From: Nanobdellota archaeon
GTDB lineage: Archaea; Nanobdellota; Nanobdellia; Woesearchaeales; UBA9642
Direction: 5' to 3'
Assembly (NCBI GenBank): GCA_041305085.1
Contig: JBFYMA010000022.1
Coordinates: 484-64,483 of the forward strand
DNA length: 64,000 bases
Below, one piece after another: positions 24,153 through 50,265 of this stretch. Each line of letters starts with the position of its first letter. Position 1 is the stretch's first letter. The notes under the pieces were generated by a model. It worked only from the letters and a program-made list of their open reading frames with translations, had not been told where the DNA came from and did not search any database. The translations under genes and the position numbers were made by a program.

Positions 24153-24275
24153 TGAAAATTTCGACTAAAAGGAAAAATTTCTATGGGTTGAATATCACAG
24201 AGTGCAGCAATCTTTGATTGCTCTGCACCTCGACCTTTAGGTTGAGGATAGGGCGAACCTATCAGTAATCAGGTG
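24153..24275 (+). repeat. structured intergenic repeat element, copy 1 (deletion-derivative of the composite form)
   Basis: ttgaaaatttcgactaaaagg...gaatatcacagagtgcagcaatctttgattgctctgcacc...cctttaggttgagg...atcaggtgcatttttgtt. The sequence is shared with copies at 50030, 47212 and 36624. Confidence 0.75.
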
Positions 24276-24287
24276 CATTTTTGTTAT

Positions 24288-24728
24288 TTATATTTCTATC
24301 CTATTTTTAAAAATATCAAATTTTTCAAACTTTGCATTTTGTACTCTTGTTTCAAGCCCAGGGTCATTACCTCTTCTTTCAAAAAAGCGCCTCTGCTCGT
24401 GCATTATGTCTTTATGAGGATCTATTGAGTCACTTTCAATTTCTTTTGCTAGTTTTGCTCTGTCAATAGCGACATATCTGAATTTTAATTCCCCTCTTGA
24501 CATTGAAAAGTATAAAATCTCAGCTATGTTGTCAAGGTAAAGTGTATCTTCTGGTCTTATTTTGTTTAGCCTGCTGAAATCAATTGCTAAATCAAAAGCA
24601 GCAGAATCATCTGAGGCAAGAAATTTGTAACATGACCAGTCTTTCATGATATTATATGAGTATTTTGTTACATGCCCTGTCTTACCATTTTTTACAATGT
24701 ACTTAGCTACGCATATTCTTCTTCTCAT
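24288..24728 (-). CDS. hypothetical protein
   Basis: 146-aa ORF immediately flanked by repeat copy 1. No motif recognised. Confidence 0.45.
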   Translation of the reverse strand: MRRRICVAKYIVKNGKTGHVTKYSYNIMKDWSCYKFLASDDSAAFDLAIDFSRLNKIRPEDTLYLDNIAEILYFSMSRGELKFRYVAIDRAKLAKEIESDSIDPHKDIMHEQRRFFERRGNDPGLETRVQNAKFEKFDIFKNRIEI

Positions 24729-24826
24729 ACTTTGTCTGAAACTTTTTTCTATATAAAAACTTTTCGGGAGTTAAAAATAACAGAGGAAATAAAGTCTTAG
24801 GATTTTTCTATGTTTTAGAAACTGAT

Positions 24827-26245
24827 TCACTCCAGCGTATTATTTTCCAGCTCAACGCACTCCTTTGCTATCTCCAGCTCCTCGTTTGTAGGAATTACCA
24901 TGACCTTGATTTTGGAATCATCACTGCTTATGATTTTTTTGTTCGCTTTGTTTTTTTGGCTGTTCAGCTTTAGCCCTGCAAAAGCCAGCGCTTCACAGAC
25001 TTGTTCTCTGATATACCATGCATTTTCTCCAATGCCTCCTGTAAACACGAGCGCATCCATCCCGTGAAGTATGGTCATGTAGCCGCCTATAAACAGAGTT
25101 ATCCTGTAGGCCAGCATGTCAAGTGCTAGCTGGGCCATCTTGTTGCCATTTAATGAAGCTTCTCTTAGATCCCTTACATCGCTGGAAAGGCCTGCTATGC
25201 CCTTAAGTCCAGAACTTTTGTTAAGAAGATTTTCCATCTTTTCTATCGAGTAGTGCTTTTTTATCAGGAAAAGGACAATTTCAGGGTCTATTTCCCCGCT
25301 TCTGGTTCCCATAATCAACCCATCCAGCGGAGTAAAGCCCATGCTTGTATCGATGCTTTCACCATCTTTTATTGCAGTTATAGAGCTACCGTTTCCTAGA
25401 TGGCAGACAATCATTTCGTGGCTTTCTTTTTCAAGAATGTCTGAAGCCTTTCCTGCAACGTACCGGGTGCTTATGCCGTGAAAGCCATACTTTCTTATGC
25501 CATATTTTTCATAGAGCTCGTAAGGGATGCCATAAAGAAATGCCTGCTTGGGAATTGTTGAATGGAACGCTGTGTCAAAAACTGCAACCTGTTTTTTGTC
25601 TGGAAGAATTTTTCTGCATGCATTGATTCCTGCAAGGTTTGCAGGGTTGTGCAGCGGAGCAAACTCTGAAAATTTTTTTATTTCCCTGATAACCTCTTCT
25701 GTTATGAAAACAGGCTTTGAAAACTCTTCTCCTCCATGAACAACTCTGTGCCCTATCAGGGAGATGTCATTAAACGAGGAGATTATTTTGAATGAGATAA
25801 GCGCCTTTAGCGCAAGGGCGACAGCTTCTTCGTGGCTTTTTACAAAAATACTTTTTTTTATGTCCTGCCCGTGCGCACTCACCTGCAGAAAGCATTTTGG
25901 TGTTCCTATTGAATCAAAAACCCCCTTTATAAGCTGGCTTTCTGTCTGTGAATCGATGAGCTGAAACTTTAGCGAGCTGCTGCCTGCATTCAGAACAAGA
26001 ATTTTGAGGCTTCTGTAATTTTGCAGTATTATCAAAAAGTGCTTTTTGTCATAAATATTTTTTATTTCATGCGCAAGCTCGTACATCTTAAGAACATCTT
26101 TTATCCAGTTGTAGAAATCGTTCTTTTTATCGTTTACGTGATGGGTAAACACAGAGTCGTTCATGCTCTTTATGCTTTCTATGAGCCCTTCAAACGAACT
26201 TATCTCTGTGCCATCAATTACTCTGAAAAAACTTTGCTTGTCCAT
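24827..26245 (-). CDS. ackA: acetate kinase with an approximately 75-aa N-terminal extension
   Basis: ILVLNAGSSSLKFQL (ASKHA phosphate-1), HRVVHGG, GFTPLDGL.MGTRSG.IDP, and a C-terminal ELENNTLE-type end. The N-terminal extension carries the DKKNDFYNWIKDVL module. Confidence 0.88.
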   Translation of the reverse strand: MDKQSFFRVIDGTEISSFEGLIESIKSMNDSVFTHHVNDKKNDFYNWIKDVLKMYELAHEIKNIYDKKHFLIILQNYRSLKILVLNAGSSSLKFQLIDSQTESQLIKGVFDSIGTPKCFLQVSAHGQDIKKSIFVKSHEEAVALALKALISFKIISSFNDISLIGHRVVHGGEEFSKPVFITEEVIREIKKFSEFAPLHNPANLAGINACRKILPDKKQVAVFDTAFHSTIPKQAFLYGIPYELYEKYGIRKYGFHGISTRYVAGKASDILEKESHEMIVCHLGNGSSITAIKDGESIDTSMGFTPLDGLIMGTRSGEIDPEIVLFLIKKHYSIEKMENLLNKSSGLKGIAGLSSDVRDLREASLNGNKMAQLALDMLAYRITLFIGGYMTILHGMDALVFTGGIGENAWYIREQVCEALAFAGLKLNSQKNKANKKIISSDDSKIKVMVIPTNEELEIAKECVELENNTLE

Positions 26246-26271
26246 CTACAACCCCTTTTTTTTTTGACAAT

Positions 26272-27231
26272 TTACTCGTAAAGCGCTTCAAACGCAGTGA
26301 TGCCTGCAATGTTGAAAATGTCCTGAACGCTTGCTCCCCTGCTCATGTCATTGACGGGCTTTTTCAGGCCCTGCAGCAGTGGTCCCAGGGCGGTGAAGCC
26401 CCCAAGCCTTTCTGCAATTTTATATGAGATGTTGCCTGAGTTCAGGTCTGGAAAGATGAAAATGTTTGCCTTTCCGTTGAGAGTGCTTTTCTTTTTTTTG
26501 GATATTTCAGGGATTATGGCTGCATCAAACTGCACTTCACCATCAATTGCAAGAGATGGGTTTTTGGCCTGTGCTATTTCTGTGGCTTTTTTTACTTTGT
26601 CAACCATTTCATGCTTTGCAGAGCCCTTTGTTGAAAACGAAAGCATTGCCACTTTTGGGGAAATGCTGAACATTTTTGCTGTTTCTGCAGTTGTTAGTGC
26701 GATTTCTGCAAGCTCTTCTGCTGAAGGGCTTATCACAAGCCCGCAGTCAGAAAAAAAGTATTCTATATTGTTCTTTATCATAAGAAAATAGCTTGAAGCC
26801 CTCTCACCTTTTGTTCCAACAATGTGAAATGCGGGCAGAAAGGGCTTTGTAGAGCTGTTGTACCCTGAAACCATGCCGTCAACCAATCCATTTCTTAAAA
26901 GCATTGCGCCAAAATAATTGCTTTGCAGAACAGTTTCCCTAGCTTTTTCAGGGGTCATTTCTTTGCGCTTTCTCAACTCAAAATACTGGTCTGCAAAGCT
27001 TTCAGTGTTTTGGTCATACAAAGGATCCCTTATCTCAAACTTGTCCATGCTTATCCTGTTTTTTTTGCAGAGCTGTTCAATTGTGGGCCTATAGCCAACA
27101 AAATAAGGAATTGCAAGTCCCTGCTTCACAAGCATTGCTCCTGCCTTCAGAACATTTGGCTCGTGGCCGTCAGGAAAAACAATCCTGAGATTCTTTCCCT
27201 TAATCCTTTTTTGTATTTTTTGGAGTATTTT
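26272..27231 (-). CDS. pta: phosphate acetyltransferase (phosphotransacetylase)
   Basis: RIVFPDGHEP N-terminal motif and a Pta/PTB fold throughout (SDCGLVISP, ADILV-like regions). Lies 26 nt upstream of ackA on the same strand. Start trimmed from 27261 to 27231. Confidence 0.85.
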   Translation of the reverse strand, partial: KILQKIQKRIKGKNLRIVFPDGHEPNVLKAGAMLVKQGLAIPYFVGYRPTIEQLCKKNRISMDKFEIRDPLYDQNTESFADQYFELRKRKEMTPEKARETVLQSNYFGAMLLRNGLVDGMVSGYNSSTKPFLPAFHIVGTKGERASSYFLMIKNNIEYFFSDCGLVISPSAEELAEIALTTAETAKMFSISPKVAMLSFSTKGSAKHEMVDKVKKATEIAQAKNPSLAIDGEVQFDAAIIPEISKKKKSTLNGKANIFIFPDLNSGNISYKIAERLGGFTALGPLLQGLKKPVNDMSRGASVQDIFNIAGITAFEALYE

Positions 27232-27787
27232 CATTTTTTCTAAGTTTTTTGTAAGCCACAAATATGACTATTACAAGCTCGACAAGTATTATTATTGGCC
27301 TCATAACTCGTTCTGCATCGCTGAAATAAATAACAGTGCCTATGAACAGGGTTAACAGGCCGCCAAACATAAATCCTGTTGATACTATGTCATTTACCTT
27401 GCTTTTGGCTGTGGGAAAATAAAGCCCTCCTATTATTGCCAAAAGGCCCAATATTGCTGAATAAAGGAAAATGTAAAAGTTGAAATTTTTCTGGGAATTA
27501 TCATAGTCCTTGCTGCATGTGTTGCAGTAATGAGAGAATGTGCACCCGTTTTCATCATATTCATATTCTGTAAATCCTCCTGAGTTCCAGCATGCCTGCT
27601 CTTCCTGTGCAGGAACAGAATAGTTCTGGCAGGAGCTTCTGCTGTCAACAGCTTTTATAGGAAGCCCTCTGGAGCAGAAGTCTTCATAGTCTGGCTTGTC
27701 ATGGATTGCGTAAACAAGGCTGAAAACAAACACAGAGAACAGGATGGTAATAGCCAGCCCTATGATGATGTTCTTGAAGTCTGCCAT
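27200..27787 (-). CDS. membrane protein with a Cys-rich extracytoplasmic loop (hypothetical)
   Basis: 195 aa. N-terminal TM, then a Cys-rich segment (C..C..C..C..C..C), then 3 further TM helices. Its 3' end overlaps the pta start by about 30 nt. Confidence 0.5.
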   Translation of the reverse strand: MADFKNIIIGLAITILFSVFVFSLVYAIHDKPDYEDFCSRGLPIKAVDSRSSCQNYSVPAQEEQACWNSGGFTEYEYDENGCTFSHYCNTCSKDYDNSQKNFNFYIFLYSAILGLLAIIGGLYFPTAKSKVNDIVSTGFMFGGLLTLFIGTVIYFSDAERVMRPIIILVELVIVIFVAYKKLRKNENTPKNTKKD

Positions 27788-27832
27788 AAAACAGGATTAA
27801 GGGGCTTTGTTTAAATATTTAGTGGTTAACTT

Positions 27833-28975
27833 CTAGATATAGCCTCTCTTCCAATACCTTATGATTTCCATTAGTTCAGATACTGATAGGCTTTCATTGA
27901 ACCAGTTGTTTATACACTCAAAAAGCTCAGTGTTATCTATCATTTGGTTGCAGTCTTGGTCTATTGCACTGTTACAAGCTATGCAATTTCCTGAACCGTC
28001 ACATACATTGCTGCCTGTACATGACTCATCCTGCTGGCCAAACAGCACAGGAATTTGCTGGCATCCATTGCTGCACACAGGCTCATAGCATAAGTTGTCA
28101 GGGCACAAGTAATCATAATTTGAGCAGTTGTCTCCTGCATCGCAGCTGTTGTCTGTGCAGGGCCCTGTTGGCTGTGAAACAAAGTCATAGATGCTGTCAA
28201 CTATGAACTGGGCAAAAAGAGGGCCTGCAGCGTTGTTTCCTGCATCATTTGGATGAGAAGATAATGTGCCAACATACTCATCAGCCAAAAAATTGTCAGG
28301 TCCGACAGTAATACTCCTGTAATCAAAAATGTAAATGTTGGGATGAGTTTTGCCGTCTTCTGTAAGAAACTCATTTTTCATCCATTCTGAAAACTGCGTT
28401 GCGCGTAAAGCATTTGAAGCATTTGTTTCAGACTCTCTTCTCGGAGGAAGAGTCCAGAGGATAAAAATATTGTCAGGATAGCTGTCCATTAAGTCCCTCA
28501 AAGCCCTGTACTGGAGCTTGTAGTTTTCTATTGATTTTCTGTTTGATGAAATGTCTGGGCTTCCTGTGTCTGCCAGAACGTCAGAGCTGGGATAGCAGTG
28601 CTTGTAGATAATTACATCATAATTGCTCGTTAAATAGTCCATGCATACCATGTCAGGGTCAGAATTGGTGCATTCTCCGTTAATCCAAAGGTTCCAGTAA
28701 TCATAGGGATAGTTTGACCAGTTATAAGGTGTGCTTGGATAATATTTGTGGCTTATCTGAAAGCTTGTGCTGTGTGCTGAGTTGTATTCTGAAAACCATG
28801 CTGGAACGCTCTTGGCTGGATAAGTGTAAACCCCGTTTCCTGTGGAATGGTGAAGGAAATGAATTTTCTGGAAATCATCAATTGTGTACGCAGATGTAAT
28901 GCTGGCAAAAATCATTGCGCTGCAGAGCAGTGTAAAAAATATGAGGATTGTGGAAAAAGAGCTTTTTTTTAACAT
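27833..28975 (-). CDS. secreted protein with a Cys-rich region and a C-terminal dockerin/EF-hand-like module
   Basis: Signal peptide (MLKKSSFSTILIFFTLLCSAMIFASITSA). 20+ Cys in the C-terminal third. The terminal DQDCNQMIDNTELFECINNWF...ELMEIIRYW resembles Ca-binding dockerin repeats. Confidence 0.55.
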   Translation of the reverse strand: MLKKSSFSTILIFFTLLCSAMIFASITSAYTIDDFQKIHFLHHSTGNGVYTYPAKSVPAWFSEYNSAHSTSFQISHKYYPSTPYNWSNYPYDYWNLWINGECTNSDPDMVCMDYLTSNYDVIIYKHCYPSSDVLADTGSPDISSNRKSIENYKLQYRALRDLMDSYPDNIFILWTLPPRRESETNASNALRATQFSEWMKNEFLTEDGKTHPNIYIFDYRSITVGPDNFLADEYVGTLSSHPNDAGNNAAGPLFAQFIVDSIYDFVSQPTGPCTDNSCDAGDNCSNYDYLCPDNLCYEPVCSNGCQQIPVLFGQQDESCTGSNVCDGSGNCIACNSAIDQDCNQMIDNTELFECINNWFNESLSVSELMEIIRYWKRGYI

Positions 28976-35619: not shown

Positions 35620-35681
35620 ACACACCCCTTTTTAACTGTTTGAGGGAATATTATTATTTATAAACTTTGCGGATGTTAATG

Positions 35682-36568
35682 CTGTGTCCCGAAAGTGTGT
35701 TGAGCCAGCAGAATAAGTTGTGGCAGGCTAGTTTGCCACAGACTTCTATACAGATGGTTCAGGCTTTTTGAGAGCTTACGCTACTTCCGTATTTGCGTTT
35801 GGTTGCGCCAAACACTGCTTCGATAAGGCTTCTCCGATTGTAGGTTTTTTGTCTGAATGCTTTGTGCATCTTTTTTCTGAAAAAACCCTTTTTTGCATTC
35901 TTTTTCTTAGGAATCATGAGCAAGATTCCTTGCTCATGTGCTTGTTTGTAGAATTTTTCGGAGACGTAATCTTTGTCTGCTACAAGAATCCGTAGATTGC
36001 TTTGCCTTATGAGCTGGTATGCATCTTTAAGGTCGTGTGCGGGTAGCACACGAACCCTGGCGGCACAAAACTTTTTGTGCCGCGTGTCAAAAGCAGCATT
36101 CAACTTAATAGGCACTTTTGGCATTTTACCATCAATACACTTCAAGTAGTGATAGCTAGGGTTTATCCTAGACAAACCCGTTGCGTCAAGCGCAACAATG
36201 CGCACTTGCCTGCTTGTTGCCTTAATTACTTGCTGCCAAAAACGAATATCAAGCTTTGCAGCTGTGCGTTGCAAAAATGATTTTGTTGGGCAAGTAAAAC
36301 CCAACAAGTCACACAACTGCTTGACTCTCCGATAAGAGAGTCTACAACAGAAACGTATCAATAACGCACATATGTACTCGTACAACTCATACATCTTTGG
36401 CCCGAAATGGTGCAGCCATCTCGGACAGCCTAAGCGTTTGAGCAAACGCTTAACTTTATATACTAATTTTGCTTGTTTCTCCATTGGTAGACACCTGCGT
36501 TGTCCACCCCTCAGACAGCCTTACTGCTGTTTGAGGTTATAATCCTTTAGAAAAATCAGAGTCTCGGG
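35682..36568 (-). mobile_element. IS5/IS4-superfamily insertion sequence with imperfect terminal inverted repeats
   Basis: About 19-bp TIRs: gctgtgtcccgaaagtgtg at 35682 and cagagtctcgggacagagc at 36550 (15/19 complementary). GC content is visibly higher than the flanks. Encodes one DDE transposase. Confidence 0.7.
35759..36484 (-). CDS. DDE transposase (IS5-like)
   Basis: ALDATG, VADKDY and the C-terminal SLIEAVFGATKRKYG motif typical of IS4/IS5 DDE transposases. Confidence 0.8.
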   Translation of the reverse strand: MEKQAKLVYKVKRLLKRLGCPRWLHHFGPKMYELYEYICALLIRFCCRLSYRRVKQLCDLLGFTCPTKSFLQRTAAKLDIRFWQQVIKATSRQVRIVALDATGLSRINPSYHYLKCIDGKMPKVPIKLNAAFDTRHKKFCAARVRVLPAHDLKDAYQLIRQSNLRILVADKDYVSEKFYKQAHEQGILLMIPKKKNAKKGFFRKKMHKAFRQKTYNRRSLIEAVFGATKRKYGSSVSSQKA

Positions 36569-36623
36569 ACAGAGCATATATATCCATTAAGTATTTAAAT
36601 ATTGCAAATTTTTGTGTTGTAAT

Positions 36624-36701: not shown

Positions 36702-37826
36702 ATGGAATCAAAAAATTGCAGGATAAAAATCATTAACGTTGTAGGCGCAAGACCTAATTTTGTCAAAATTGCACCTATTATGAGGGAGCTAAGAAACCAT
36801 AGTTTTTTTGAACCAATACTTGTACATACCGGACAGCACTACACAAAATCCATGAACGAGTATTTTTTTGAAGATTTGGGAATACCTAATCCTGATTACT
36901 CTTTGGGTGTGGGGTCAGGCTCTCATGCTGTCCAGACAGCAAAAATAATGACTGAGTTTGAAAAAGTGTGCCTTTCTGAAAAACCTGATCTCGTACTGGT
37001 AGTTGGTGATGTTAATTCAACAATAGCATGCGCACTGGTTGCAAAAAAGCTTCACATAAATGTTGTGCATGTAGAAGCAGGATTGAGAAGTTTTGACAGA
37101 GAAATGCCTGAAGAAATCAACAGAATATTAACAGATTCCATCTCTGACTTGCTTTTTGTGACAGAGATTTCAGGGATTCAAAATCTAAAAAATGAAGGGG
37201 TTTCTGAAGATAAAATGTTTATGGTTGGAAACGTAATGATTGACTCCCTTGTTCACAGCATTAAAAAAATAAGAAATGGGAAGTATTTTAAAAAATTTGG
37301 AGTAGACCCAAAAAAATATTTTGTACTAACTCTTCACAGGCCGAGCAATGTTGACAAAAAAGAAAACATTTTGTCCCTTCTTGATGCCATCAGCAAAATA
37401 CAAAAAAATGTAAAAATTGTTTTTCCTATTCACCCCAGAACTCTGAAATCACTAAAGGAAAAAAACATTCTGGAATCAGTAAAAAAAATGCAAAACCTAA
37501 TAATTTGCGAACCACTAAACTATATTGGCTTTTTGTCATTGGTCTATTACTCGAGAGGTGTCCTGACAGATTCGGGAGGGATCCAGGAGGAAACAACATA
37601 TTTCAAGATTCCTTGTATAACAATCAGGGAAAACACAGAAAGACCTTCAACAACAAAAACAGGAAGCAATATTTTGGTAGGTACTAATCCTGAAAGAATC
37701 GTTGAGGAAGCAAAAAAAGTTCTGGAAAATAAAAAATTTGAATCAGGGATACCTGAATTTTGGGATGGAAAAACCGCAAAAAGAATCGTTCAGATATTAT
37801 CAGAGCGTTTGAAAAATGGCAGTTAA
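36702..37826 (+). CDS. wecB: UDP-N-acetylglucosamine 2-epimerase (non-hydrolysing)
   Basis: KIINVVGARPNFVKIAPI, HTGQHY, HVEAGLRS, typical WecB/MnaA motifs. Confidence 0.88.
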   Translation: MESKNCRIKIINVVGARPNFVKIAPIMRELRNHSFFEPILVHTGQHYTKSMNEYFFEDLGIPNPDYSLGVGSGSHAVQTAKIMTEFEKVCLSEKPDLVLVVGDVNSTIACALVAKKLHINVVHVEAGLRSFDREMPEEINRILTDSISDLLFVTEISGIQNLKNEGVSEDKMFMVGNVMIDSLVHSIKKIRNGKYFKKFGVDPKKYFVLTLHRPSNVDKKENILSLLDAISKIQKNVKIVFPIHPRTLKSLKEKNILESVKKMQNLIICEPLNYIGFLSLVYYSRGVLTDSGGIQEETTYFKIPCITIRENTERPSTTKTGSNILVGTNPERIVEEAKKVLENKKFESGIPEFWDGKTAKRIVQILSERLKNGS

Positions 37827-39144
37827 AATAATCATTGTTGTGTTGGCTCCTGCAAAAGGAATTGGTGGAGGAAACAGAAAATTCAAAATTTATTATGACA
37901 ATTTTGATAAAAAATACTTTAACAAATATTATGTTTTTCTTGACAAAAACCCCAGAGCTTTTAAAAAAAACAAAGACGGTACATTCAACATAGGACTTGA
38001 AAAGTTACAACAATTTTTGGACAAAAAAAAGGCAGATTTTTTTTTTAGTGGGGAAAAAATTCCTGAAAAATTTTATAACGAAATTAAAAAAAAGTGCTTT
38101 TCCATAATTAATGTAAATTTCACATATCTTTATTCTAAAGACTCTAAGGATATAAACATTATCATAAGCAAGACAGACTATTTAAAGATAAAGCTTATTA
38201 ACAAAAAAATCCAGAACGCATATGTAGTATACAATCCCATAGATGTAAAAAAATGGGAATCTTTAAGAAATAATAGTCAAGGAAAGTATAAAAACTATTT
38301 TAAAAACAAAAAAATAAAATTAATTGTTGGTAGACTGGCCAGAGCAGAGCCCAGCAAATGGAATTATTTGATTATTAAAACACTTCTGCAAATGCAAAAA
38401 AGAAAGATATATGATTACGGATTTGTATTTGCAGGCATGACTGCATTATACAGAAAAACATTGCAGCTTTTCTTGGGAAGAAAAATGCTTGAAAACATCC
38501 TGTTTCTTCCCGAACTCAAAAAAGATGAAGACTTATCCAATTTTTATAACTCTATAGATCTTTTTTGGCAAACGTCCTTAATTGGCGAAAGCTTTGGAAA
38601 CGTTATTGCAGAAGCTTTTTACTTCAAGGTTCCAGTAATAACTGATTATAAAAGATTTGTGAGAAAAAATAAAAGAATAGACTTTTGGAGATATGATGCC
38701 CAGATAGAACTGGTGGATGATGGAAAAAATGGAAAATACTGCAACTATCCACAAAAAGTTATACAATTTTTGCAAAATACAAACTCTAAAAAACTTAAAA
38801 AAATGGGGGAAAATGGACTAAAAAAAACAAGATCTAAATATGATGTCAGGGACACATGCAAAACTTTTGCAAAAATATGCTATGAATACCTGAGAAAAGC
38901 CAAAAAAATTCCCAAAGATCCAAAATTTGAAGCCATCAAAAAAAAGCCTTCAGAAAAAGAATTAGATGATTATGAAAAAGAGTATTTTAAGAGAATAAGT
39001 TATGCTGTAAAGATTAACAAAATAAAACAAAACGAAAAAAGGACTTACAAAATCCAGGAATGGTTCTGGAAAAAAATAGAGTTGTTATATGTTGTAGTAA
39101 GAAAAGTTTGCAAAAAGCTCAAAATAGAATTGGAAAAGATGTAA
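37816..39144 (+). CDS. glycosyltransferase family 4 (GT-B) with a C-terminal extension
   Basis: EX7E motif GESFGNVIAEAF. Overlaps the wecB end by 11 nt. Confidence 0.7.
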   Translation: MAVKIIIVVLAPAKGIGGGNRKFKIYYDNFDKKYFNKYYVFLDKNPRAFKKNKDGTFNIGLEKLQQFLDKKKADFFFSGEKIPEKFYNEIKKKCFSIINVNFTYLYSKDSKDINIIISKTDYLKIKLINKKIQNAYVVYNPIDVKKWESLRNNSQGKYKNYFKNKKIKLIVGRLARAEPSKWNYLIIKTLLQMQKRKIYDYGFVFAGMTALYRKTLQLFLGRKMLENILFLPELKKDEDLSNFYNSIDLFWQTSLIGESFGNVIAEAFYFKVPVITDYKRFVRKNKRIDFWRYDAQIELVDDGKNGKYCNYPQKVIQFLQNTNSKKLKKMGENGLKKTRSKYDVRDTCKTFAKICYEYLRKAKKIPKDPKFEAIKKKPSEKELDDYEKEYFKRISYAVKINKIKQNEKRTYKIQEWFWKKIELLYVVVRKVCKKLKIELEKM

Positions 39145-39145
39145 A

Positions 39146-41008
39146 ATGTGTGGAATTTCAGGAATGGTTTTAGGAAATGGACAGGTTTCAGAAGATGTTC
39201 TGGAAGAAAATAACAATATAATGAAGCACAGGGGTCCTGATGATTCAGGAATATGGATTTCTAAAGACAAAAAAACAGGATTTTCCCATTCAAGGCTTTC
39301 AATCGTAGATCTTGATAAGAGATCAAAACAACCAATGATTTTTGAAAATGAAAAAATTGTCATCATTTTCAATGGAGAAATATATAACTATGTTGAGCTA
39401 AGAAAAAAACTTCAAAAAAAATACAAATTCAGAACAACATCTGACACAGAAGTTTTGGGTTATTTGTATATTGAAAAAGGAGTGAAGCTCTTAGACGAGA
39501 TAGAGGGAATGTTTGCATTCGCAATTTATGAGAAAGAACAAAATAAGACTTTTATTGCAAGAGATTTTATAGGACAAAAACCACTCATCTACTGCCAAGA
39601 TAAGGAAGGGTTTTTTTTTGGCTCAGAAATACCTGTCATTCTCAACAGCAACCCTAAACTTGACAAAAAAATTGATTATGGTTCTTTAGGTGTCTTTCTA
39701 ACTCCAAATTTCAGCCACATACCTGCACCATTCACTATCTTCAAAAATATCAAAAAGCTGGAGCCATCACATTACATAATAGTGAAACAAGGAAATATTA
39801 TTGAAAAAAAGCAGTATTACAAACTTCAAAAGAAAAAATTAAAAAAAAGAAACGAAGCTGATTTTATTTGCAGAAAAGTTAACTGGATGAAGCCTCTGGA
39901 CGTCAAATATGCCTCTTTCCTTTCGGGAGGTAATGATTCCTCACTTGTTTGCAGCTGTCTTGAAAAAGAAGCTGAAAAAAAAGTAGAGGTATATACGTTA
40001 AAGGTGGGAAATACTGATAAGGATTTTGAAAGAGCCAAATATGTTGCGAAAACACTGCATTTAAAACACAGCACAACAAATTTTAACTTTGAAAATTTTT
40101 TGAATAGTTTGGAAGACCAGATAAAAAACTTTGGCGAGCCTTATTACCACATCACTTCTGTTTATGCAGACTATATTCTGAATATGGTTGCAAAAAAATA
40201 CAAAGTTTTGTTTTCAGGCGCGGGAGGGGATGAAGTCTATTACGGGTATGACAACATCCAGTTTATTTTGATTGACTTTTTCCTTAAATCAAAAAAAATA
40301 ATTCCAAATTTTTTGTTTAAAGTTTTTCTGCCAAAAAAATATTCCTTTTTGCACGATGCAAACCATCAAAATTTCAAAGAAAAGTATTACAGCCACTGCT
40401 TTAACAGAACAAAAAATATTTTTGATTCTCAAATTGTTTGTAAAAAAACAAAAGAATACCTGAAAAAAATAAGCTCACAAATATTTATTCTCACAGATGC
40501 AAAAAATTATTTGGATATATCATACATGGCAGGAATTTATATAGAAAACAGCCATTCACTCACAATACAAAGCGATCTTGTGGGGATGAAAAACTCTGTG
40601 GAGATAAGATGTCCTTTTTTGGAAAAAAAAGTTATAGAAAGCGGATACAGTCTTCCTTTGCACAAAAAGATAAGTATTTTCAGGATAAGGGAAGGAAAAG
40701 AAGTGATAAAAAAAGCGCTTCTTAAAACTTTTTCAAAAAAATTTGTTTACTCAAAAAAAATTGGTTTTGGAGTGGAGTTCAAAGGACAAAAAAAAATACT
40801 AGAGTTGCATACAAAAAAAATAAGTAAGTACTTGAAAGATTTGGCAAAAAGAAAAGAGTTCAGCAACCTAGAAATAAGCAATATTCTTAAAAGAAAAAAA
40901 GAAAAAAAGTTTATACTTTTGATGAAGCTTTACTGCATCGAGACATGGTTTAAGGAATTTATCGACAAAAAAAATCATGATGTTAATTATTTTTTAGCAC
41001 AAAAATGA
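39146..41008 (+). CDS. asnB: asparagine synthase (glutamine-hydrolysing)-like amidotransferase
   Basis: N-terminal MCGISGMV (Ntn Cys) and PP-loop SGGNDSS. 620 aa. Confidence 0.85.
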   Translation: MCGISGMVLGNGQVSEDVLEENNNIMKHRGPDDSGIWISKDKKTGFSHSRLSIVDLDKRSKQPMIFENEKIVIIFNGEIYNYVELRKKLQKKYKFRTTSDTEVLGYLYIEKGVKLLDEIEGMFAFAIYEKEQNKTFIARDFIGQKPLIYCQDKEGFFFGSEIPVILNSNPKLDKKIDYGSLGVFLTPNFSHIPAPFTIFKNIKKLEPSHYIIVKQGNIIEKKQYYKLQKKKLKKRNEADFICRKVNWMKPLDVKYASFLSGGNDSSLVCSCLEKEAEKKVEVYTLKVGNTDKDFERAKYVAKTLHLKHSTTNFNFENFLNSLEDQIKNFGEPYYHITSVYADYILNMVAKKYKVLFSGAGGDEVYYGYDNIQFILIDFFLKSKKIIPNFLFKVFLPKKYSFLHDANHQNFKEKYYSHCFNRTKNIFDSQIVCKKTKEYLKKISSQIFILTDAKNYLDISYMAGIYIENSHSLTIQSDLVGMKNSVEIRCPFLEKKVIESGYSLPLHKKISIFRIREGKEVIKKALLKTFSKKFVYSKKIGFGVEFKGQKKILELHTKKISKYLKDLAKRKEFSNLEISNILKRKKEKKFILLMKLYCIETWFKEFIDKKNHDVNYFLAQK

Positions 41009-41156: not shown

Positions 41157-41240
41157 TCAAAGATTGCTGGCATCACTCTGTGATATTCAACCCTGCGCAA
41201 TTTTCAATAAATTTCTGGCATCCCTCTGGGACATTCAGGA
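41157..41240 (-). repeat. partial copy of the intergenic repeat (reverse orientation)
   Basis: The reverse complement contains gggttgaatatcacagagtgatgccagcaatctttg, identical to the core of the copies at 50140 and 47300. Confidence 0.6.
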
Positions 41241-41625
41241 TGGAGTAGGATGTTAAAATCAAAACAATACAATAGCAGGAGTATAAAATACAAATAGAAA
41301 ATCGTGGCAAACATAACACCTGCATTTTTTTGCTGAACTGCTTTTTATCAGAATGATTTTTGGCTGGCTGATGCCAGCATTGTGCTGAGCTGCGCTCAGA
41401 ATACACCTGATTTTGTCAGGCTATGGCCTGCCATTGGAGGGTTTAGGCCGCGCAAAGCGCGGTTATTGTATTCATTCTGATCAATATTTTACAAGCCTGT
41501 AATTTTTATGATTCTTATGATTCTCATAATTCTCATAATCTCCACAATTCTTAATTCGATGCCTGAATGCTCGCAAAATTTAACACACCAAAAATTATAT
41601 AAATAAAGGAGATTCACTTTGTACT

Positions 41626-42765
41626 ATGAGGGGGGTTTGGTTCTTTGCGCTTATATTGATTCTTGTATTTGTATCTTCGTGCGTCCAGCAGTCCGAAACA
41701 GGAATAATCAAAAAGGGCGTTCAGAACGCTGTATCTTACAACAACACAAAAGACTGCCTTACCCAGAGTGGTGTGTGGAGAGATTTCTGCTATAAAGAGG
41801 TTGCCATAAATCAGGACAGTGCTGGTCTCTGCGAAAAGGCAGGCACAACAATGGATGCCTGCTATTACGGGATTGCAAAAAACAGGGTTGACGAATCTTT
41901 GTGCGCAAAAGCTGGTGGAGAGATGGACAACTGCTATTATGATGTTGCAAAAGAAAAAGAGGATGAATCAATATGCAAAAATGCAGGACTAAGAAGGGAT
42001 GTGTGTTTTGAAGACATTGCATTAATGAAATCAGACGAAACAATCTGCGAAGACGCAGGCAGAAGAAGGGATGACTGTGTTGCAGGGATTGCCCAGAAAA
42101 CAAATAATGACCTTTTGTGTGAGGATGCAGGCAAGAAAAAAGGCTTCTGCTATTTTATGCTTGCCCAGCAGAAAAAGGCAGAAAACCTGTGCATGAATGC
42201 AGAGGAGATGAAGGGCAACTGCTATTACAAGCTTGGAGTGCTGTTGGAGGATGCGCTGCTTTGCAACTCAACATACAGTGGAGCCTATTTCAATTTATGC
42301 TATAAGGAAGTTGCAGTTATTTTGAAAAATGAAAAATTTTGCCAGAGCGCAGGCAACAAGTCAAATGAATGCTATTGGGAGACTGCAAAAGCAAAATCTG
42401 ATGAAAGAATTTGTGAATCAATAGAGGATGACCAAAAAAGCTCAGAGAGCTGCTTTTATGATTTGGGTGTTGCCAAAGAAAACATTTTAATATGCAACAG
42501 GGCAGGCTCTCAAAAGAATGCCTGCTATATCAAGGTTGCATCCAGCACAAAAGATGCCAGCATCTGCGAGCAGACGGCCAGCAAGGATTCCTGCTATGTG
42601 GCTGTTGCCCAGTCAGTAAAGGATGAGTCTTTGTGCGATAATGCAGGCAGCAAAAAAGAAGAATGCTATTTTTCTCTTGCAAAAATAAAAAAACAGAGTG
42701 ACCTGTGCGCATCTACAGGGGAGAGCCAGCAGGCCTGCATGAAGCTCTTTGAAGTTGTAGAATAG
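41626..42765 (+). CDS. secreted/lipoprotein-like repeat protein: 14 tandem 24-aa two-Cys repeats
   Basis: Signal peptide ending VSSC. Repeats follow the pattern LCxxAGxxxDxCYxxxAxxxxDEx (e.g. LCAKAGGEMDNCYYDVAKEKEDES). DNA period is about 72 bp. Confidence 0.7.
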   Translation: MRGVWFFALILILVFVSSCVQQSETGIIKKGVQNAVSYNNTKDCLTQSGVWRDFCYKEVAINQDSAGLCEKAGTTMDACYYGIAKNRVDESLCAKAGGEMDNCYYDVAKEKEDESICKNAGLRRDVCFEDIALMKSDETICEDAGRRRDDCVAGIAQKTNNDLLCEDAGKKKGFCYFMLAQQKKAENLCMNAEEMKGNCYYKLGVLLEDALLCNSTYSGAYFNLCYKEVAVILKNEKFCQSAGNKSNECYWETAKAKSDERICESIEDDQKSSESCFYDLGVAKENILICNRAGSQKNACYIKVASSTKDASICEQTASKDSCYVAVAQSVKDESLCDNAGSKKEECYFSLAKIKKQSDLCASTGESQQACMKLFEVVE

Positions 42766-44724: not shown

Positions 44725-44769
44725 GGCATTGAAAATAATTAATTTTATTTATAAATTTTGCTATGAGCA

Positions 44770-46237: not shown

Positions 46238-47191
46238 ATGTATGCTTTTGAGCTTTCCAAGAAAAACATGCAATTATCTGAGTCTGAAGTGCTAGAACTT
46301 TTAGGAATAAAACAAAAGCCTAAGCTTATTGAAAACTTTCTTTTTGCAGAAAAAATTGGCGGAAAAATAATTGAAAAAGCCAGCAGGCTTGCGTTTACGC
46401 GAAAAGTTTTCAAGCTGCTGTTTGATGGAAGCAAAAAAGACCTTGAAAAGCTTATGAAAAACTTTTCCTGGAAAAAAATTTACAGGTCAAGCTTTGCGCT
46501 CAGGGTTTACAACAGTCCAGAATGGCAGGAAAAGGATCTTGCAGGATTTATATGGAGGGCTGTAAAAAACCCAAAAGTTGTTCTTGAAGACCCATTCACA
46601 ATGATTGCGGTAGTTTTTTTTGGAAAAAGATTTTTTTGCTTTCAGGAGCTATGGAAAAATTCTCAGAATTTTGAGGCAAGAAAGCCCCAGAACAGGCCAG
46701 AGCAGCACCCATCCTCTCTTGATCCAAGGCTTGCAAGAGCAATGGTGAATCTTGCATCATCATCAAACATTATCGACCCTTTTTGCGGAGCTGGAGGAAT
46801 ATTGATAGAGTCTGCGCTTATGGGGCTTAAGACAAAGGGAAGCGATTTTGACAGGGTCATGATAAACAGGGCAAAGCTGAACATGGCCCATTTTGGCATA
46901 AAGGATGTTAAGCTGGAGCAGAAGGATGCGCTGGCTGCAAGAATTGGCAAAAGCTTTGCAATTGTCACAGACTTTCCCTATGGCAAGAATACAAAGGTTT
47001 CTGATGCAGGATCCCTTTTGAAAAGATTTCTTGAAAAAGCAAAAAAGCAGGGAGTAAACAAAATTGTTATAGGGCTGAATAACAGCATGCCGTATAATAG
47101 GATAATAAAAAATGCAGGATGGAAGACTAGGAAAGAGTTTTCAATATACATCCACAAAAGCCTTACGAAGAGGATTGTTGTGCTTGAATGA
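46238..47191 (+). CDS. THUMP-domain RNA (guanine-N2) methyltransferase, Trm11/Trm14-like
   Basis: SAM motif I DPFCGAGGILIE and motif IV DFPYG (N2-G MTase type). N-terminal THUMP-like region. Confidence 0.7.
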   Translation: MYAFELSKKNMQLSESEVLELLGIKQKPKLIENFLFAEKIGGKIIEKASRLAFTRKVFKLLFDGSKKDLEKLMKNFSWKKIYRSSFALRVYNSPEWQEKDLAGFIWRAVKNPKVVLEDPFTMIAVVFFGKRFFCFQELWKNSQNFEARKPQNRPEQHPSSLDPRLARAMVNLASSSNIIDPFCGAGGILIESALMGLKTKGSDFDRVMINRAKLNMAHFGIKDVKLEQKDALAARIGKSFAIVTDFPYGKNTKVSDAGSLLKRFLEKAKKQGVNKIVIGLNNSMPYNRIIKNAGWKTRKEFSIYIHKSLTKRIVVLE

Positions 47192-47211
47192 GGAATTTGA
47201 GCTTTTTGTTA

Positions 47212-47398
47212 TTGAAAATTTCGCAGGGATTTAATACCCCTCACTTTAGTGCGAAATTCTTCAATTCCAAAAATGTGCCTTACAAGATTGCGAGCATGTA
47301 ATATTCCAGAGGGATGCCAGCAATCCTTGATTGCTCTGCACCCCTGCATTTAGGCAGGGTATAGGGTGAGCTATTAAGTCATAAGGCACATTTTTGTT
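47212..47398 (+). repeat. structured intergenic repeat, copy 3 (degenerate tail continues to about 47530)
   Basis: ttgaaaatttcgcaggg...gtgcgaaattcttcaa hairpin, then aaatgtgccttac...gatgccagcaatccttgattgctctgcacc...cataaggcacatttttgtt. The terminal stem is perfect. Confidence 0.75.
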
Positions 47399-47584
47399 AT
47401 CATGATAACACAACTGCGCACTGTGGTGCACAGCCTAGACTCGCCAAAGGAGGGCAATAGCCAGGCAGAGCCGGGTTTTTCCTGAGCAGAGCTCAGTAAT
47501 CTTCTGGCAGGTGCCAGCAATATCATCATGATTAAGCATTATTCTGCTTTATACAAAAAATAAAAATAGTTGACTCTTACTTCT

Positions 47585-48079
47585 TCACTTCTTTATGCTC
47601 TTATATACCCTCTCCAGCTCTTTATCGTCTGCAATAATGTTGTTCATGGCCTCTATTATGACATTCACATCGGTTATCATGTCCTTAAGAAGGCCTGCCT
47701 CCAGCTCCTGAATTGTGGGCCTGTCCTCAAGCATGCCTATGAGCTCGTTCAAGTTTTTCTTTATCTTCCAGATCTGCTGGTTCTTGTCGTTCAAAAAGCC
47801 GCCGTCGTTGAGCCTGATGAAATCTTTTTTCTGAGCCTCCTCGTTTGTGATGTCAACTATGTCTGAAGAGACTATCTCAACTTCCCTGTGGAGCTTGAGA
47901 AACATGTTTCTGAGATCTTCAAGATCTTTTTCCCTGTCTCCAGGCTTCCCGTCTTCAAGTATTCCTTTTAGCTCCAGAATCTTTTTTTCAGAGTCCAGAA
48001 TGAGCCTGCAAATCTGCTTGTTTATGCTTTTGTCCTTTATCTCTATATTAAGAACATTGCTTTTTTTTGAAAAAACCAT
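47585..48079 (-). CDS. hypothetical coiled-coil protein
   Basis: 164-aa charged, heptad-rich ORF. Confidence 0.45.
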   Translation of the reverse strand: MVFSKKSNVLNIEIKDKSINKQICRLILDSEKKILELKGILEDGKPGDREKDLEDLRNMFLKLHREVEIVSSDIVDITNEEAQKKDFIRLNDGGFLNDKNQQIWKIKKNLNELIGMLEDRPTIQELEAGLLKDMITDVNVIIEAMNNIIADDKELERVYKSIKK

Positions 48080-48206
48080 GATTACACCTCTCTGCTTTTA
48101 AGCCAGAAGTCATATTTAAATATTTTTATACTGCCAAAACAAAATATTTATATATCTTCTTGTTTTTGTCTACTCAGAAGGGGTGAGAATTGATTATTTG
48201 TAAAAG

Positions 48207-50021
48207 GTGATAATTTTGGAAACAGACAAAAAAGAAAACTATGAAGAAAACGATAACATTTACAAGAACGATCTGGACTTTAATGAAGAAGACTATGAAG
48301 TTGATGCAGAAACAATAGAAATAAACGACGATGCTGACTCTCCTGCACAAAAAAAGCAGGAAGAGTCTTCCGCCAATGCAAAAAAAGCTGCAATACAGAG
48401 AGATGATGATAATGAAGAAAAAGACAAGCCAGTTGCTTCTTCCAGGCCTATGAAAAAGGTTTCAAAGCCTATAAAGCCTGTAGTAACAAGAAAAGCAAAG
48501 AAAATTACAAAAAAAACCAATTCAAAGCCTTCAAAAAGCCCAAAAAAGCCAAGCAATTCAAATGGTGAAACAGCAGTATGGCCTTGGATTGTGCTTATCA
48601 TAGTAATAGTGACTGCAGCTGCAGTTCTTATCTGGAGCATTGTTACACATCCACCGCAGCAGCAGACAGCTGGCAATAATACAGTTGTTGCCACAGTGAA
48701 CGGCGAGCAGATAACCCTGGGAGAAATTAATGCCAGATATGACTCTCTGAACCCATTTTACAAGAGCGTAATAACAAAGGAACTGCTTTTAAACCAGTCT
48801 ATAGATGAGTTGCTGCTGCTTCAGGAAGCAGAAAAAGAAGGTTTAACAGCAACAGATCAGGAAGTTGAAGACCTTATAAATTCGATACTTGAGGAAAGCA
48901 ACATGTCCTATGATGATTTTGTTTCAAGGCTTGCATCGCAGGGAATATCCATTGATTATGTAAGGAGTGTATACAAGAATCAGATGATTATAGATAAAGT
49001 CCTTAACCAGACGGTATTTAAAGGTATTGAGGTGTCAGAGCAGGAAATTGAGAATTACTATGAGGAAAACAAGGACCTGTTCACAGGCACGCCTGACCAG
49101 GCAAAGGTAAGGCATATACTGGTTGCCATAGACAACTACACAACTCTTGAACTGGCCTCTGAAAAGATAAATGAGGCAAAAAACAAGTACTTGTCTGAAG
49201 AAGAGGACTTCTGCAGCCTTGTGGCAGAGTATTCTGATGACGCAGGAAGCATTGCCTCATGCGGAGAATACACTTTTCCAAGGGGTCAGATGGTGCCTGA
49301 GTTTGAAAATGCAGCGTTTGAGCTGGAGCCAAACCAGACAGAGATAGTGCAGTCTGTCTACGGCTATCACTTTATAGAAAAACTTGAGGATATTCCAGGA
49401 ACCGTTGCATCGTTTGAGTCCTTGAGGGACCAGATAGAACAGACACTGCTGTACCAGAAGCAGGAAGAATCATATATGAGCTACATAAAAACACTGAGGG
49501 ATTCTTCAGCCATAACTGCCAACTATGATGCTCTGGAAGCTGAGGCTATGGAAGAGCAGGCAGAAACAACAGGAAATGTAGTGACAGAGCCAATAGAGAA
49601 TGTGATTGGTGAAGACCAGGAAACCTCAGACCAGTCCATGCAGGAAGAAAACTCTGTGCAGCAGGAGCAAACATCTGAACAACAAGAAACAATGAATGAG
49701 CAGCAAGAAATACAGGATGAAACACAGAATGAAGATTCTTCAATGATAGAAAATACAGAAGAGCTGAGAACCTGCCTTGCAGCTACAGATGCAGTTTTGT
49801 ATGGTGCATACTGGAAAAAAGAAGTAAAAGAGCAGAAGGATATGCTTGGAGATGTTTTCGATGTGATAGAATATGTTGAGTGCGATCCAAACTATCCTGA
49901 CAGCCAGCCTGAAAAGTGCTCAGAGAAAGAAATAGATGTTTATCCAACATGGATAATAAAAGGGGAAAAATCTGAAGGCAAAAAAACCCTTCAGGAATTG
50001 AAAGAATTGGCTCTTTGCTGA
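48207..50021 (+). CDS. membrane-anchored parvulin-type peptidyl-prolyl isomerase (PrsA/SurA-like) with a C-terminal thioredoxin-like domain
   Basis: Low-complexity acidic/basic N-terminal tail, one TM, SurA-like chaperone region, parvulin core (VRHILV...YGYHFI), an acidic Q/E linker, and a C-terminal YGAYW..YVEC.PNYP..C..YPTWIIKG domain. Confidence 0.75.
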   Translation: MIILETDKKENYEENDNIYKNDLDFNEEDYEVDAETIEINDDADSPAQKKQEESSANAKKAAIQRDDDNEEKDKPVASSRPMKKVSKPIKPVVTRKAKKITKKTNSKPSKSPKKPSNSNGETAVWPWIVLIIVIVTAAAVLIWSIVTHPPQQQTAGNNTVVATVNGEQITLGEINARYDSLNPFYKSVITKELLLNQSIDELLLLQEAEKEGLTATDQEVEDLINSILEESNMSYDDFVSRLASQGISIDYVRSVYKNQMIIDKVLNQTVFKGIEVSEQEIENYYEENKDLFTGTPDQAKVRHILVAIDNYTTLELASEKINEAKNKYLSEEEDFCSLVAEYSDDAGSIASCGEYTFPRGQMVPEFENAAFELEPNQTEIVQSVYGYHFIEKLEDIPGTVASFESLRDQIEQTLLYQKQEESYMSYIKTLRDSSAITANYDALEAEAMEEQAETTGNVVTEPIENVIGEDQETSDQSMQEENSVQQEQTSEQQETMNEQQEIQDETQNEDSSMIENTEELRTCLAATDAVLYGAYWKKEVKEQKDMLGDVFDVIEYVECDPNYPDSQPEKCSEKEIDVYPTWIIKGEKSEGKKTLQELKELALC

Positions 50022-50029
50022 TTTTTTTA

Positions 50030-50265
50030 TTGAAAATTTCGACTAAAAGGTGAAATTTATATGGGTTGAATATCACAGAGTGCAGCAACCTCTGCTGCTC
50101 TGCACCCCTGCCTTCAGGTCGAAATTTTCAATTCCAAAAGTGCGCCTGAGAAGATTGTGAGCCAGTAATATCACAGAGTGATGCCAGCAATCTTTGATTG
50201 CTCTGCACCGCAACCTTTAGGTCGAGGATAGGGCGAACCTATCAGTAATCAGGTGCATTTTTGTT
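50030..50265 (+). repeat. structured intergenic repeat, copy 2 (full composite form)
   Basis: Contains the ttgaaaatttcgac...gtcgaaattttcaa hairpin module and the gtgcgcctgag...atcaggtgcatttttgtt stem-enclosed module. The atatcacagagtg core occurs twice. Confidence 0.8.

Follow-up and report, generated by a model that had tools for sequence, protein, structure and literature searches.

Background

The REP (repetitive extragenic palindromic) sequences and bacterial interspersed mosaic elements (BIMEs) of proteobacteria go together with REP-associated tyrosine transposases (RAYTs), the REPs being 20-40 nucleotides (nt) long with a conserved 5' GTAG. Other bacteria carry modular repeats, such as the pneumococcal BOX elements (boxA-boxB(n)-boxC), the enterobacterial repetitive intergenic consensus (ERIC) sequences, the Correia elements of Neisseria and bcr1 of Bacillus cereus, of which bcr1 is reported with TTTAT, and Correia and ERIC with clear long inverted ends and a TA duplication. 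Palindrome-associated transposable elements (PATEs) have reportedly been described in Haloquadratum walsbyi. In Geobacillus stearothermophilus, PATEs are seen as gene-less derivatives of insertion sequences (IS) of the IS200/IS605 type, whose insertion takes place 3' of a transposon-adjacent motif, for instance TTTAT, with no target duplication (PMC10055086). Here we describe a family of gene-less, hairpin-rich repeats, present in six copies of 59-241 bases, all intergenic, in a 64,000-nt stretch of archaeal DNA (contig JBFYMA010000022.1), which we call the window, and compare it with these systems.

With somewhat better than even confidence, we regard these elements as a non-autonomous and gene-less mobile repeat family, REP/PATE/BOX-like, of DPANN (Woesearchaeota-type) archaea. 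In the following, the copies in the window are labelled C1-C6, and L-numbers denote loci fetched from other genomes and metagenomes. The window contains an archaeal RNase P RNA at 16592-16914, its sole Rfam match at the gathering threshold, and a glycyl-tRNA synthetase (GlyRS) whose nearest named relatives belong to Candidatus Woesearchaeota and Nanoarchaeota, so the host is itself a DPANN archaeon of the Woesearchaeota type. The G+C content of the window is about 39%, and ARAGORN finds no tRNA in it.

The repeat copies in the window

The original prediction had named six loci for this repeat; we re-read all six, and the copies are real and far above chance, with modules and hairpins as it had described them and with every copy lying between genes. 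In fact, the 15-mer TTATTGAAAATTTCG, with at most two mismatches, gives 7 matches against 0.63 expected, namely the six outward-facing 5' ends and one internal arm of C6, while the gapped 5'-module pattern TTATTGAAAATTKCG-N(2-21)-GGRTTKAAT matches exactly the six loci with 0 expected. The module-2 core and the 3' end likewise give 4 matches (0.04 expected) and 5 matches (0.08 expected). A multiple alignment shows the 5' end TTATTGAAAATTKCG and the 3' end GTTAT to be common to all six copies, and TTTTT precedes the GTTAT in five of them. The density is about one copy per 4 kb over a 26-kb stretch. A full unit runs in the order TTAT, palindromic A domain, TCC, palindromic B domain and G-TTAT, and the copies with their parts are located as follows.

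C1, 24149..24287, plus strand: internal-deletion derivative of a C6-like unit
C2, 36622..36696, minus strand: A-domain-only derivative ending in TTTTTGTTAT; 54.7 bits
C3, 41088..41210, minus strand: internal-deletion derivative, the A 5' end fused to module 2 and the B 3' half
Module-2 fragment of another copy, the module's start (AATGTCCCAGAGGGATGCCAGAAAT), 41211..41235, minus strand: abuts the 5' end of C3
C4, 44319..44377, plus strand: decayed A-domain copy, 3' arm diverged, still ending in GGTTAT; 57.8 bits
Solo 3'-terminal motif TTTTTGTTAT, 47203..47212, plus strand: immediately before C5, sharing TTAT with its 5' end
C5, 47209..47400, plus strand: compact full unit; 73 bits
A domain of C5, plus strand: compact three-way junction with GGGATTTAATACCCC and CACTTTAGTG hairpins
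B domain of C5, 47269-47282 / 47382-47395, plus strand: closed by AAAAATGTGCCTTA / TAAGGCACATTTTT
C6, 50027..50267, plus strand: fullest composite unit
TTAT of C6, 50027-50030, plus strand: left terminus
A domain of C6, about 50029-50134, plus strand: closed by ATTGAAAATTTCGAC / GTCGAAATTTTCAAT, with an inner module-2 copy at 50083-50106
B domain of C6, 50136-50149 / 50249-50262, plus strand: after the TCC linker, closed by AAAAGTGCGCCTGA / TCAGGTGCATTTTT
Contents of the C6 B domain, plus strand: module 2 at 50185-50209, CTTTAG-loop hairpin at 50208-50227

The shorter copies are nested internal deletions that retain both termini. For example, C1 is 93-96% identical to C6 on either side of its deletion, and the crossover lies in the repeated CAGCAA directly after ATATCACAGAGTG, just as expected from the earlier proposal that this copy arose by deletion between direct repeats of the composite form. 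Of the long module-1 hairpin, C1 has the 5' arm alone. Both C1 and C3 are missing a stretch that begins inside the first domain and runs up to the second domain's module 2.

The copies stand close to their neighbouring genes. C1 fills the entire gap from the stop of nth (24143) to the stop of a convergent 146-aa open reading frame (ORF; 24288); C5 starts 17 nt past the stop of a UPF0020 methyltransferase gene; the 3' end of C3 faces the stop of asnB (41008); C4 sits between the GlyRS promoter and the stop of a conserved 113-aa gene; and C6 ends in a GTTAT whose TTA (50264-50266) is the TAA stop of a convergent 199-aa gene. C2 is placed between an IS and wecB, with its 5' end 5 nt from the wecB ATG, and any nearby wecB promoter would therefore have to lie inside C2.

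Architecture and folding

The design of the unit became clear from the metagenome relatives, which show a compact canonical form, for example L017. The first half of L017 reads TTAT-TGAAAATTGCGCA-GGGGTTTAATACCCC-GCACTTTAGTGC-GCAATTTTTAAT-TCC, and the second half, after the TCC, reads AAAAACCGCAC-GATAAATA-CCCCGACCTTCAGGTCGGGG-ATTA-GTGCGGTTTTT-G-TTAT. Domain A is a three-way junction, independently predicted by RNAalifold, in which an outer stem ATTGAAAATTKC / GMAATTTTYAAT surrounds two small hairpins, one of the form GGGG-TTTAATA-CCCC and a short one with a C-TTTA-G loop. Domain B is closed by a helix of the form A5-stem / stem-T5, whose stem is free in sequence and always paired; its loop is very long (35-170 nt) and packed with one hairpin bearing a conserved C-TTYA-G loop and a variable number of further hairpins. 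Module 2 of the window is one of these B-domain hairpins and has a compensated homologue in L020, the stems being CAGCAATC/GATTGCTCTG in the window versus CAGAAATC/GATTTCTG in L020. Moreover, up to five A-rich/T-rich mini-hairpins are found inside the elements of L016, L021 and L023, and the A-tract/stem/T-tract design is shared by domain B, the outer stem of domain A and these mini-hairpins, terminator-like from either strand. Compared with shuffled sequence, whole elements fold with z-scores of -5.4 to -6.9 on both strands.

A solo mini-hairpin, AGAAAAGC-TTT-GCTTTTCT, is located between genes at 890-908 of the window, and its stem is that of one internal mini-hairpin of the L021 and L023 elements.

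Ends, orientation and target

TTAT stands before all six outward 5' ends in the window, even when TTAT is omitted from the search, and GTTAT ends 14 of the 14 complete copies found by the 5' pattern, which does not include the 3' end; the diverged L039 copy, found via a covariance model, ends in TTTAT. TTAT appears on both sides of every complete copy with constant sequence and orientation. The original prediction had suggested looking for target-site duplications around full copies, and the TTAT present on both sides may be one, or may instead be a recognition motif or part of the element. The fixed orientation of a non-palindromic 4-mer is unlike symmetric DDE cut-and-paste with target duplication; it fits TTAT as part of the element, or oriented insertion beside a short motif as in IS200/IS605. 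Besides, the right-end motif directly abuts a left end at two places, at 47203-47212 before C5 and in the L039 copy, there followed by TGAAAAT; this is the junction expected of an IS200/IS605-like mechanism and could also be chance in AT-rich spacers.

A cut-and-paste transposase of the DDE type, encoded elsewhere in the genome, might nevertheless bind the ends and duplicate a 4-bp TTAT target, which would make the elements classical MITEs (miniature inverted-repeat transposable elements). This would explain the TTAT on both sides of every complete copy, and it suits elements that are small, intergenic, free of ORFs and set in an AT-rich target; moreover, a census gives a high density of automatically called MITEs, 105 per Mb, in one Woesearchaea genome (PMC11602168). 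After removal of TTAT, the A-only derivative C2 alone reaches a good match, 15 of 20 terminal positions, whereas the composite copies match at only 8-10 of 20, mostly within an A run. Since, in addition, a symmetric DDE synapse would not be expected to give a constant orientation of the target, the left TTAT has its AT within the conserved A stem, and the IS4/5-type IS of the window has unrelated ends, we consider this origin improbable.

Of 17 copies, 13 have a convergent gene's stop at their 3' side, 8 of the 17 having a stop at the 5' side as well, and in C6, L002 and L006 the terminal TTA is the TAA of the convergent gene. Where the neighbouring genes are in tandem, as at five junctions, the element always runs antisense to them.

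Relatives elsewhere and evidence of spread

Confinement of the copies to the window, which the original prediction had named, together with missing covariation, as grounds for refutation, is not what we find: at least five other populations, one a named Woesearchaeota genome and four from metagenomes, carry related copies beside different genes. Ga0265296 carries copies on five contigs and Ga0209541 on two, and Ga0182021, Ga0182027 and one further assembly carry copies too. The Ga0209541 locus L020 recurs as an ENA contig (L044) with an identical ATPase gene, where the covariance model finds the same copy, while the diverged L039 copy lies on a named Candidatus Woesearchaeota contig of 576 kb. 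The host was checked in one of the four metagenome populations, that of L020, where the best named protein matches are to Nanoarchaeota, Pacearchaeota and Woesearchaeota, i.e. DPANN.

In the species-representative genome collection, the module-2 pattern found a single chance match, in an alphaproteobacterial metagenome-assembled genome. Among viral contigs, the 5' pattern met only an unrelated 32-nt sequence common to human-gut metagenome contigs, and the A-stem pattern gave zero matches. The 16-mer GTGCGGTTTTTGTTAT gave 34 matches in viral contigs, which we judged compatible with chance; a paired B arm is not found upstream of any of them, and inspection of three contexts showed phage terminators of the ordinary sort.

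Several features of these relatives suggest that the element has spread. First, the B stems are lineage-specific within genomes, with CCGCAC in Ga0265296 and Ga0209541, and TGTGCC or GTGCGCC in the window, a pattern pointing to amplification from local master copies. Second, copies of 55-252 nt with nested internal deletions always retain the same 5' and 3' termini. Third, orthologous sites are found empty. The gene order 194aa-SurA-...-168aa-methyltransferase-108aa-GlyRS of L039 matches that of the window, with orthologues 37-71% identical, and three junctions that hold a copy in the window lack one in L039.

SurA / 199aa (194aa) junction: C6 in the window, 26 nt in L039
Methyltransferase / 164aa (168aa) junction: C5 in the window, overlapping genes in L039
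GlyRS / 113aa (108aa) junction: C4 in the window, 42 nt in L039

When C4 together with one TTAT is taken out in silico, colinearity is restored, as GATGGTTTGGGGATA-TTAT-TTGAAC then aligns with GATGGTTTTT-TAT-TTCTTC of L039. Similarly in L028, whose nth is 80% identical, nth and ackA abut at the place where the window has C1 and the 146-aa ORF.

Fourth, the repeat is itself hit by other mobile DNA: in two copies with unlike flanks, the GGGGTTTAATACCCC hairpin harbours one and the same IS4/Tn5-like IS.

L003, 1810-3400: IS4/Tn5-like IS in an element copy, in the GGGGTTTAATACCCC hairpin
L026, 2003 onward: the same IS at the same position of the GGGGTTTAATACCCC hairpin

This IS encodes a 462-aa transposase (domains Tnp_DNA_bind, DDE_Tnp_1 and Dimer_Tnp_Tn5) and has the ends TGACCCTTACCC; by analogy with some bacterial IS that target REP sequences, the coincidence suggests that it may target the repeat. 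Since the sites are unrelated, the termini are kept, orthologous sites are empty and IS hit the copies, a MITE-like element is the best supported of the three options in the original prediction (the others being a small structured RNA and a regulatory element), with the exception that the composite copies have no real terminal inverted repeats.

Conserved structure, and whether it is RNA

It had been argued that pairing in the terminal stem is kept by different sequences. This holds, with the correction that the stems ascribed to a 'copy 3' and a 'copy 2' are those of C5 and C6, which are two fully compensated pairs and two G-U pairs apart; and the pairing is conserved within the window and, more strongly, across related genomes; the B1 stems are all paired, and three A-domain pairs covary. 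In nine A domains taken together, 92% of the cells are paired, three of the pairs have both partners altered, and the structure beats 500 of 500 shuffles and all slid controls both in paired cells and in covariation score. Beyond A5/T5, the B closing stem occurs in five sequences, TGTGCCTTA, GTGCGCCTGA, CCGCAC, TTCGC and TCA, all fully paired. Even in the diverged L039 copy the outer A stem, the TCC linker and the termini are conserved as sequence, its interior being unrelated. Across populations, then, termini and hairpin loops are conserved and stems differ with compensating changes. End sequences that are conserved beside stems that are free yet paired point to ends that would be recognised by a protein and to hairpins that would be needed as such.

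Compensatory change alone does not show selection on RNA, since DNA hairpins used in transposition, or template switching within palindromes, would mimic RNA covariation. Counts of G-U pairs offer a way to ask which strand, if any, acts as RNA. When all copies are pooled, 42 G-U pairs fall on the plus strand versus 18 on the minus strand, but the excess mostly disappears (18 versus 13) in those folds when complete copies only are counted, and the loop hairpins have 6 G-U versus 4 A-C. Neither the G-U/A-C counts nor the folding z-scores thus give a robust signal of asymmetry indicating RNA from one strand.

This bears on the proposal that the copies are an abundant small structured RNA, that is, independently transcribed small RNA genes with a built-in terminator. 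A strong conserved secondary structure with some covariation, and a 3' end where a T run comes after a stem, are what such genes would show, and one G-T in the outer A stem, recurring in 6 of 9 copies, is a weak hint in the same direction. The remaining evidence is of the opposite sense: Rfam has no match on the elements, either at the gathering threshold in the window or at E up to 1 in 24000-50400; the copies put up with extensive internal deletions; their interior is not shared from one lineage to another; both strands fold equally; and G-U pairs show little strand bias in complete copies. Moreover, the copies begin 5-17 nt past a stop codon, or lie 5 nt from a start codon, leaving no space for a promoter with B recognition element (BRE) and TATA box, and a promoter of their own is therefore unlikely. 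We find it very improbable that they are RNA genes of this kind; if transcribed, the elements would form part of the neighbouring mRNAs.

Readings of the copies as C/D boxes, K-turns, tRNA-like structures or origin recognition boxes were also tried and rejected, as the respective motifs are not conserved among the copies.

Gene spacing and transcript ends

The genome is very compact. Convergent genes of the window usually abut with a spacing of 0-7 nt or overlap (at 5109/5111, 33006/33007, 42765/42773, 53769/53766 and 56073/56070), and the junctions that hold C1, C5 and C6, of 140-390 nt, are exceptions among the convergent pairs.

This setting must be considered together with the possibility that the elements are cis-acting bidirectional terminators, or stabilisers of 3' ends, for flanking and mostly convergent genes, spread by duplication and kept by selection. 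Archaeal RNA polymerase would then stop, whichever way it travels, at the T runs of two structures, the A5-stem-T5 helix that closes domain B and the outer stem, A-rich/T-rich, of domain A. In favour of such a function, A5 and T5 flank domain B in every lineage while the stem changes with compensation, the mini-hairpins of L016, L021 and L023 share the same design, a gene stop stands opposite 13 of the 17 copies, C1 and C6 each take up all of the space from one convergent stop to the other, and the equally strong folds of the two strands are as expected for a bidirectional element. A simple terminator scan misses the elements because their loops are too long. However, a spacer is absent altogether from most convergent pairs of the window, and relatives show no element at the orthologous junctions; since element-free convergent junctions are usual both here and in the relatives, termination does not require the element. 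Moreover, little of the structure is left in the deletion derivatives C2, C4 and L006, which nevertheless keep the termini; C2, L027 and L039 lie in promoter regions; and a terminator role leaves unexplained why the outer A stem and TTAT/GTTAT are conserved in sequence. It is thus unlikely that the family is maintained by selection for termination, while termination in both directions is possibly a side role of the elements, judging from their A-tract/stem/T-tract design.

Proposed mobilisation of the element

If the elements are non-autonomous mobile repeats, as we favour, their history might be pictured as follows. An element would be copied in trans to new sites, now or recently, and would land at TTAT in a single fixed orientation, often at the complement of an A-TAA stop-codon context; as TTAT is the complement of that context, this would explain why the 3' end so often abuts a convergent stop. 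Survival would be chiefly at gene 3' ends, where an insertion would be harmless and selfish repeats would be tolerated. Once inserted, the element would be transcribed together with its neighbours, and its A-tract/stem/T-tract hairpins would probably stop or stabilise transcripts both ways.

As to the enzyme, the absence of inverted ends, the asymmetric ends with subterminal hairpins and the fixed orientation make a transposase of the HUH/Y1 class, recognising single-stranded hairpins and of the IS200/IS605-TnpA or RAYT type, the leading candidate, which we put forward tentatively and with considerable doubt. In the source genome, the searches for transposases and integrases read the 64 kb of the window. 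The sole IS there, at 35655-36601 (DDE_Tnp_1, IS4/5-type), was considered as a parent of the elements and rejected, its ends being unrelated.

A number of points weigh against mobility. No transposase with matching ends was found in the window or beside the copies, and the only IS of the window has unrelated inverted repeats; neither Y1 (Y1_Tnp) nor TnpB (OrfB_IS605) nor RAYT occurs among the scanned ORFs of the window or the genes flanking the other copies, near which the scanned ORFs include only unrelated IS4- and UPF0236-type transposases. The left TTAT belonged to the pattern with which the metagenome copies were fished, and its AT pairs within the A stem, so that TTAT may belong to the element. 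The empty sites come from distant relatives (64-80% protein identity) and represent gain or loss rather than current mobility. The family is patchy and sparse elsewhere: a single copy was found in 44 kb of the genome with L039, and L038, L043 and L045 have none. Finally, compensated stems with conserved loops mean selection for structure, which also fits an RNA or protein-binding role.

A bolder version, to which we give little credence, would have a TTAT-oriented single-strand system homing to the complement of A-TAA, either IS200/IS605- or RAYT-like and not yet described in DPANN or of a new type, with the elements working as bidirectional terminators, occasional promoters (wecB) and brackets of islands. 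If the fixed TTAT orientation does reflect single-strand transposition, that mechanism, possibly with RNA-guided partners, would be extended to a group in which it is unstudied; otherwise we would have one more small intergenic repeat family.

DPANN archaea have very small, tightly packed genomes that are usually thought to be poor in repetitive DNA. A structured repeat family with lineage-specific variants across several uncultured Woesearchaeota-type populations would offer a way to study the persistence of mobile DNA in reduced genomes. As a marker, it may be of use in strain typing and for assembly breaks, and it may be a natural test case for archaeal transcript ends between abutting genes.

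Neighbouring features

The original prediction had extended the unit by tails to about 41470 and 47530. These do not belong to it and are instead two copies of a second hairpin-rich repeat family, 69% identical over 111 nt.

Second family, copy 1, 47427..47535, plus strand: 3' of C5
Second family, copy 2, 41344..41454, minus strand: 5' of C3

The second family carries CTGAGCNNAGCTCAG and GCCAGC palindromes, and it was not found in any fetched locus.

The window also has a low-GC island at 36702-41008 (GC 0.30-0.34 versus about 0.39-0.40) with wecB and with genes for an asparagine synthase and a GT1 glycosyltransferase. The relative L038 lacks this island: there, 163 nt separate the POR gene from that of the Cys-rich protein, and the intergenic sequence is too diverged to place the exact junctions of the island. 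The IS4/5-type IS adjoins C2 at the island edge, C2 and C3 bracket the island in the same orientation, and the island may be captured cargo. One might therefore ask whether the elements are recombination sites like the attC sites of integrons, belonging to a cassette system that captures genes such as this wecB-glycosyltransferase-asnB island. The bracketing of an island absent from L038 agrees with this, as do imperfect palindromes at gene 3' ends. Yet there are no RYYYAAC / GTTRRRY core sites, the ends being TTATTGAAAAT and GTTAT followed by pyrimidines; the scanned ORFs of the window include no integrase; and other copies flank syntenic housekeeping genes (GlyRS, SurA-like, nth) rather than cassettes, which makes a cassette system scarcely credible.

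The 146-aa ORF between C1 and ackA (24288-24728, minus strand) has no Pfam match and is absent from L028; it may have arrived with or near the element. Another ORF, at 41626-42765 on the plus strand, is built from Cys-rich repeats with the pattern C..AG....D.CY...IA, about eight in number, diverged and each 72 nt (24 aa) long; Pfam gives no match to this ORF, and its L038 orthologue is 49% identical. Upstream of it, at about 41505-41555, are tandem repeats of about 11 nt (ttatgattct / cataattctc), and a tandem repeat of similar style lies upstream of GlyRS in a 77%-identical relative (L040, about 130-200).

Two relatively GC-rich intergenic regions (0.43-0.47), 740-1012 and 55185-55600, have strong predicted folds, are mutually dissimilar and show no Rfam match at E up to 1; they may be unannotated non-coding RNAs. 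The 1-kb region 13921-14960 has no long ORF in a simple gene call and a coding-like composition on the minus strand, and may be a frameshifted or interrupted gene.

Comparison with known systems

Among the described systems, the PATEs resemble the present elements in being gene-less, in having no terminal inverted repeats and asymmetric ends with subterminal hairpins, in standing in fixed orientation beside a short AT-rich motif, and in being mobilised in trans, which for the present elements would be by an enzyme of the kind discussed above. They differ in that the present elements have no TnpA/TnpB found and no Rfam match on or near the copies, and no sequence similarity to known IS; moreover, the T5 run just before their 3' end would stop a transcript before any guide, and the bipartite double palindrome with variable inner hairpins is not the usual left-end/right-end layout.

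With REP/BIME, the elements share that they are extragenic palindromes concentrated between convergent genes, that they are mosaics of palindromic units, that they seem to be targets of specific IS and that they probably act on transcript 3' ends. In contrast to REPs, they are archaeal units of 55-252 nt with AT-rich ends TTATTGAAAAT/GTTAT, without a GTAG head and with no RAYT-like ORF seen. The modular bacterial repeats BOX, ERIC, Correia and bcr1 are alike in a variable number of inner hairpin modules, AT-rich flanking motifs and, presumably in the present elements too, transcription together with neighbouring genes; they belong to another domain of life and have no sequence relationship to the present elements, which also lack the long inverted ends and the TA duplication.

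To intrinsic terminators the B domain is similar as an A-tract/GC-containing stem/T5 that can be read from both strands, and an unrelated phage terminator even carries the same 16-mer GTGCGGTTTTTGTTAT; the difference is that the loop of the elements is 35-170 nt long and filled with hairpins, and that they form a family with conserved termini joined to a conserved A domain.

Measured against strictly defined MITEs, the elements agree in size (55-252 nt, with a limit of about 600 bp), in having no ORF and in occupying many unrelated sites, and not in inverted ends or, among the ORFs scanned in the 64-kb window and next to copies elsewhere, in a parent IS with the same ends. The archaeal MITE census deals with this host group too, and with small intergenic repeats of the same general kind; it requires terminal inverted repeats and gives no family description (PMC11602168). 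On this comparison, into which the MITEs of the census enter by their description only, the elements are best filed as a family that is new within the known class of small non-autonomous intergenic repeats.

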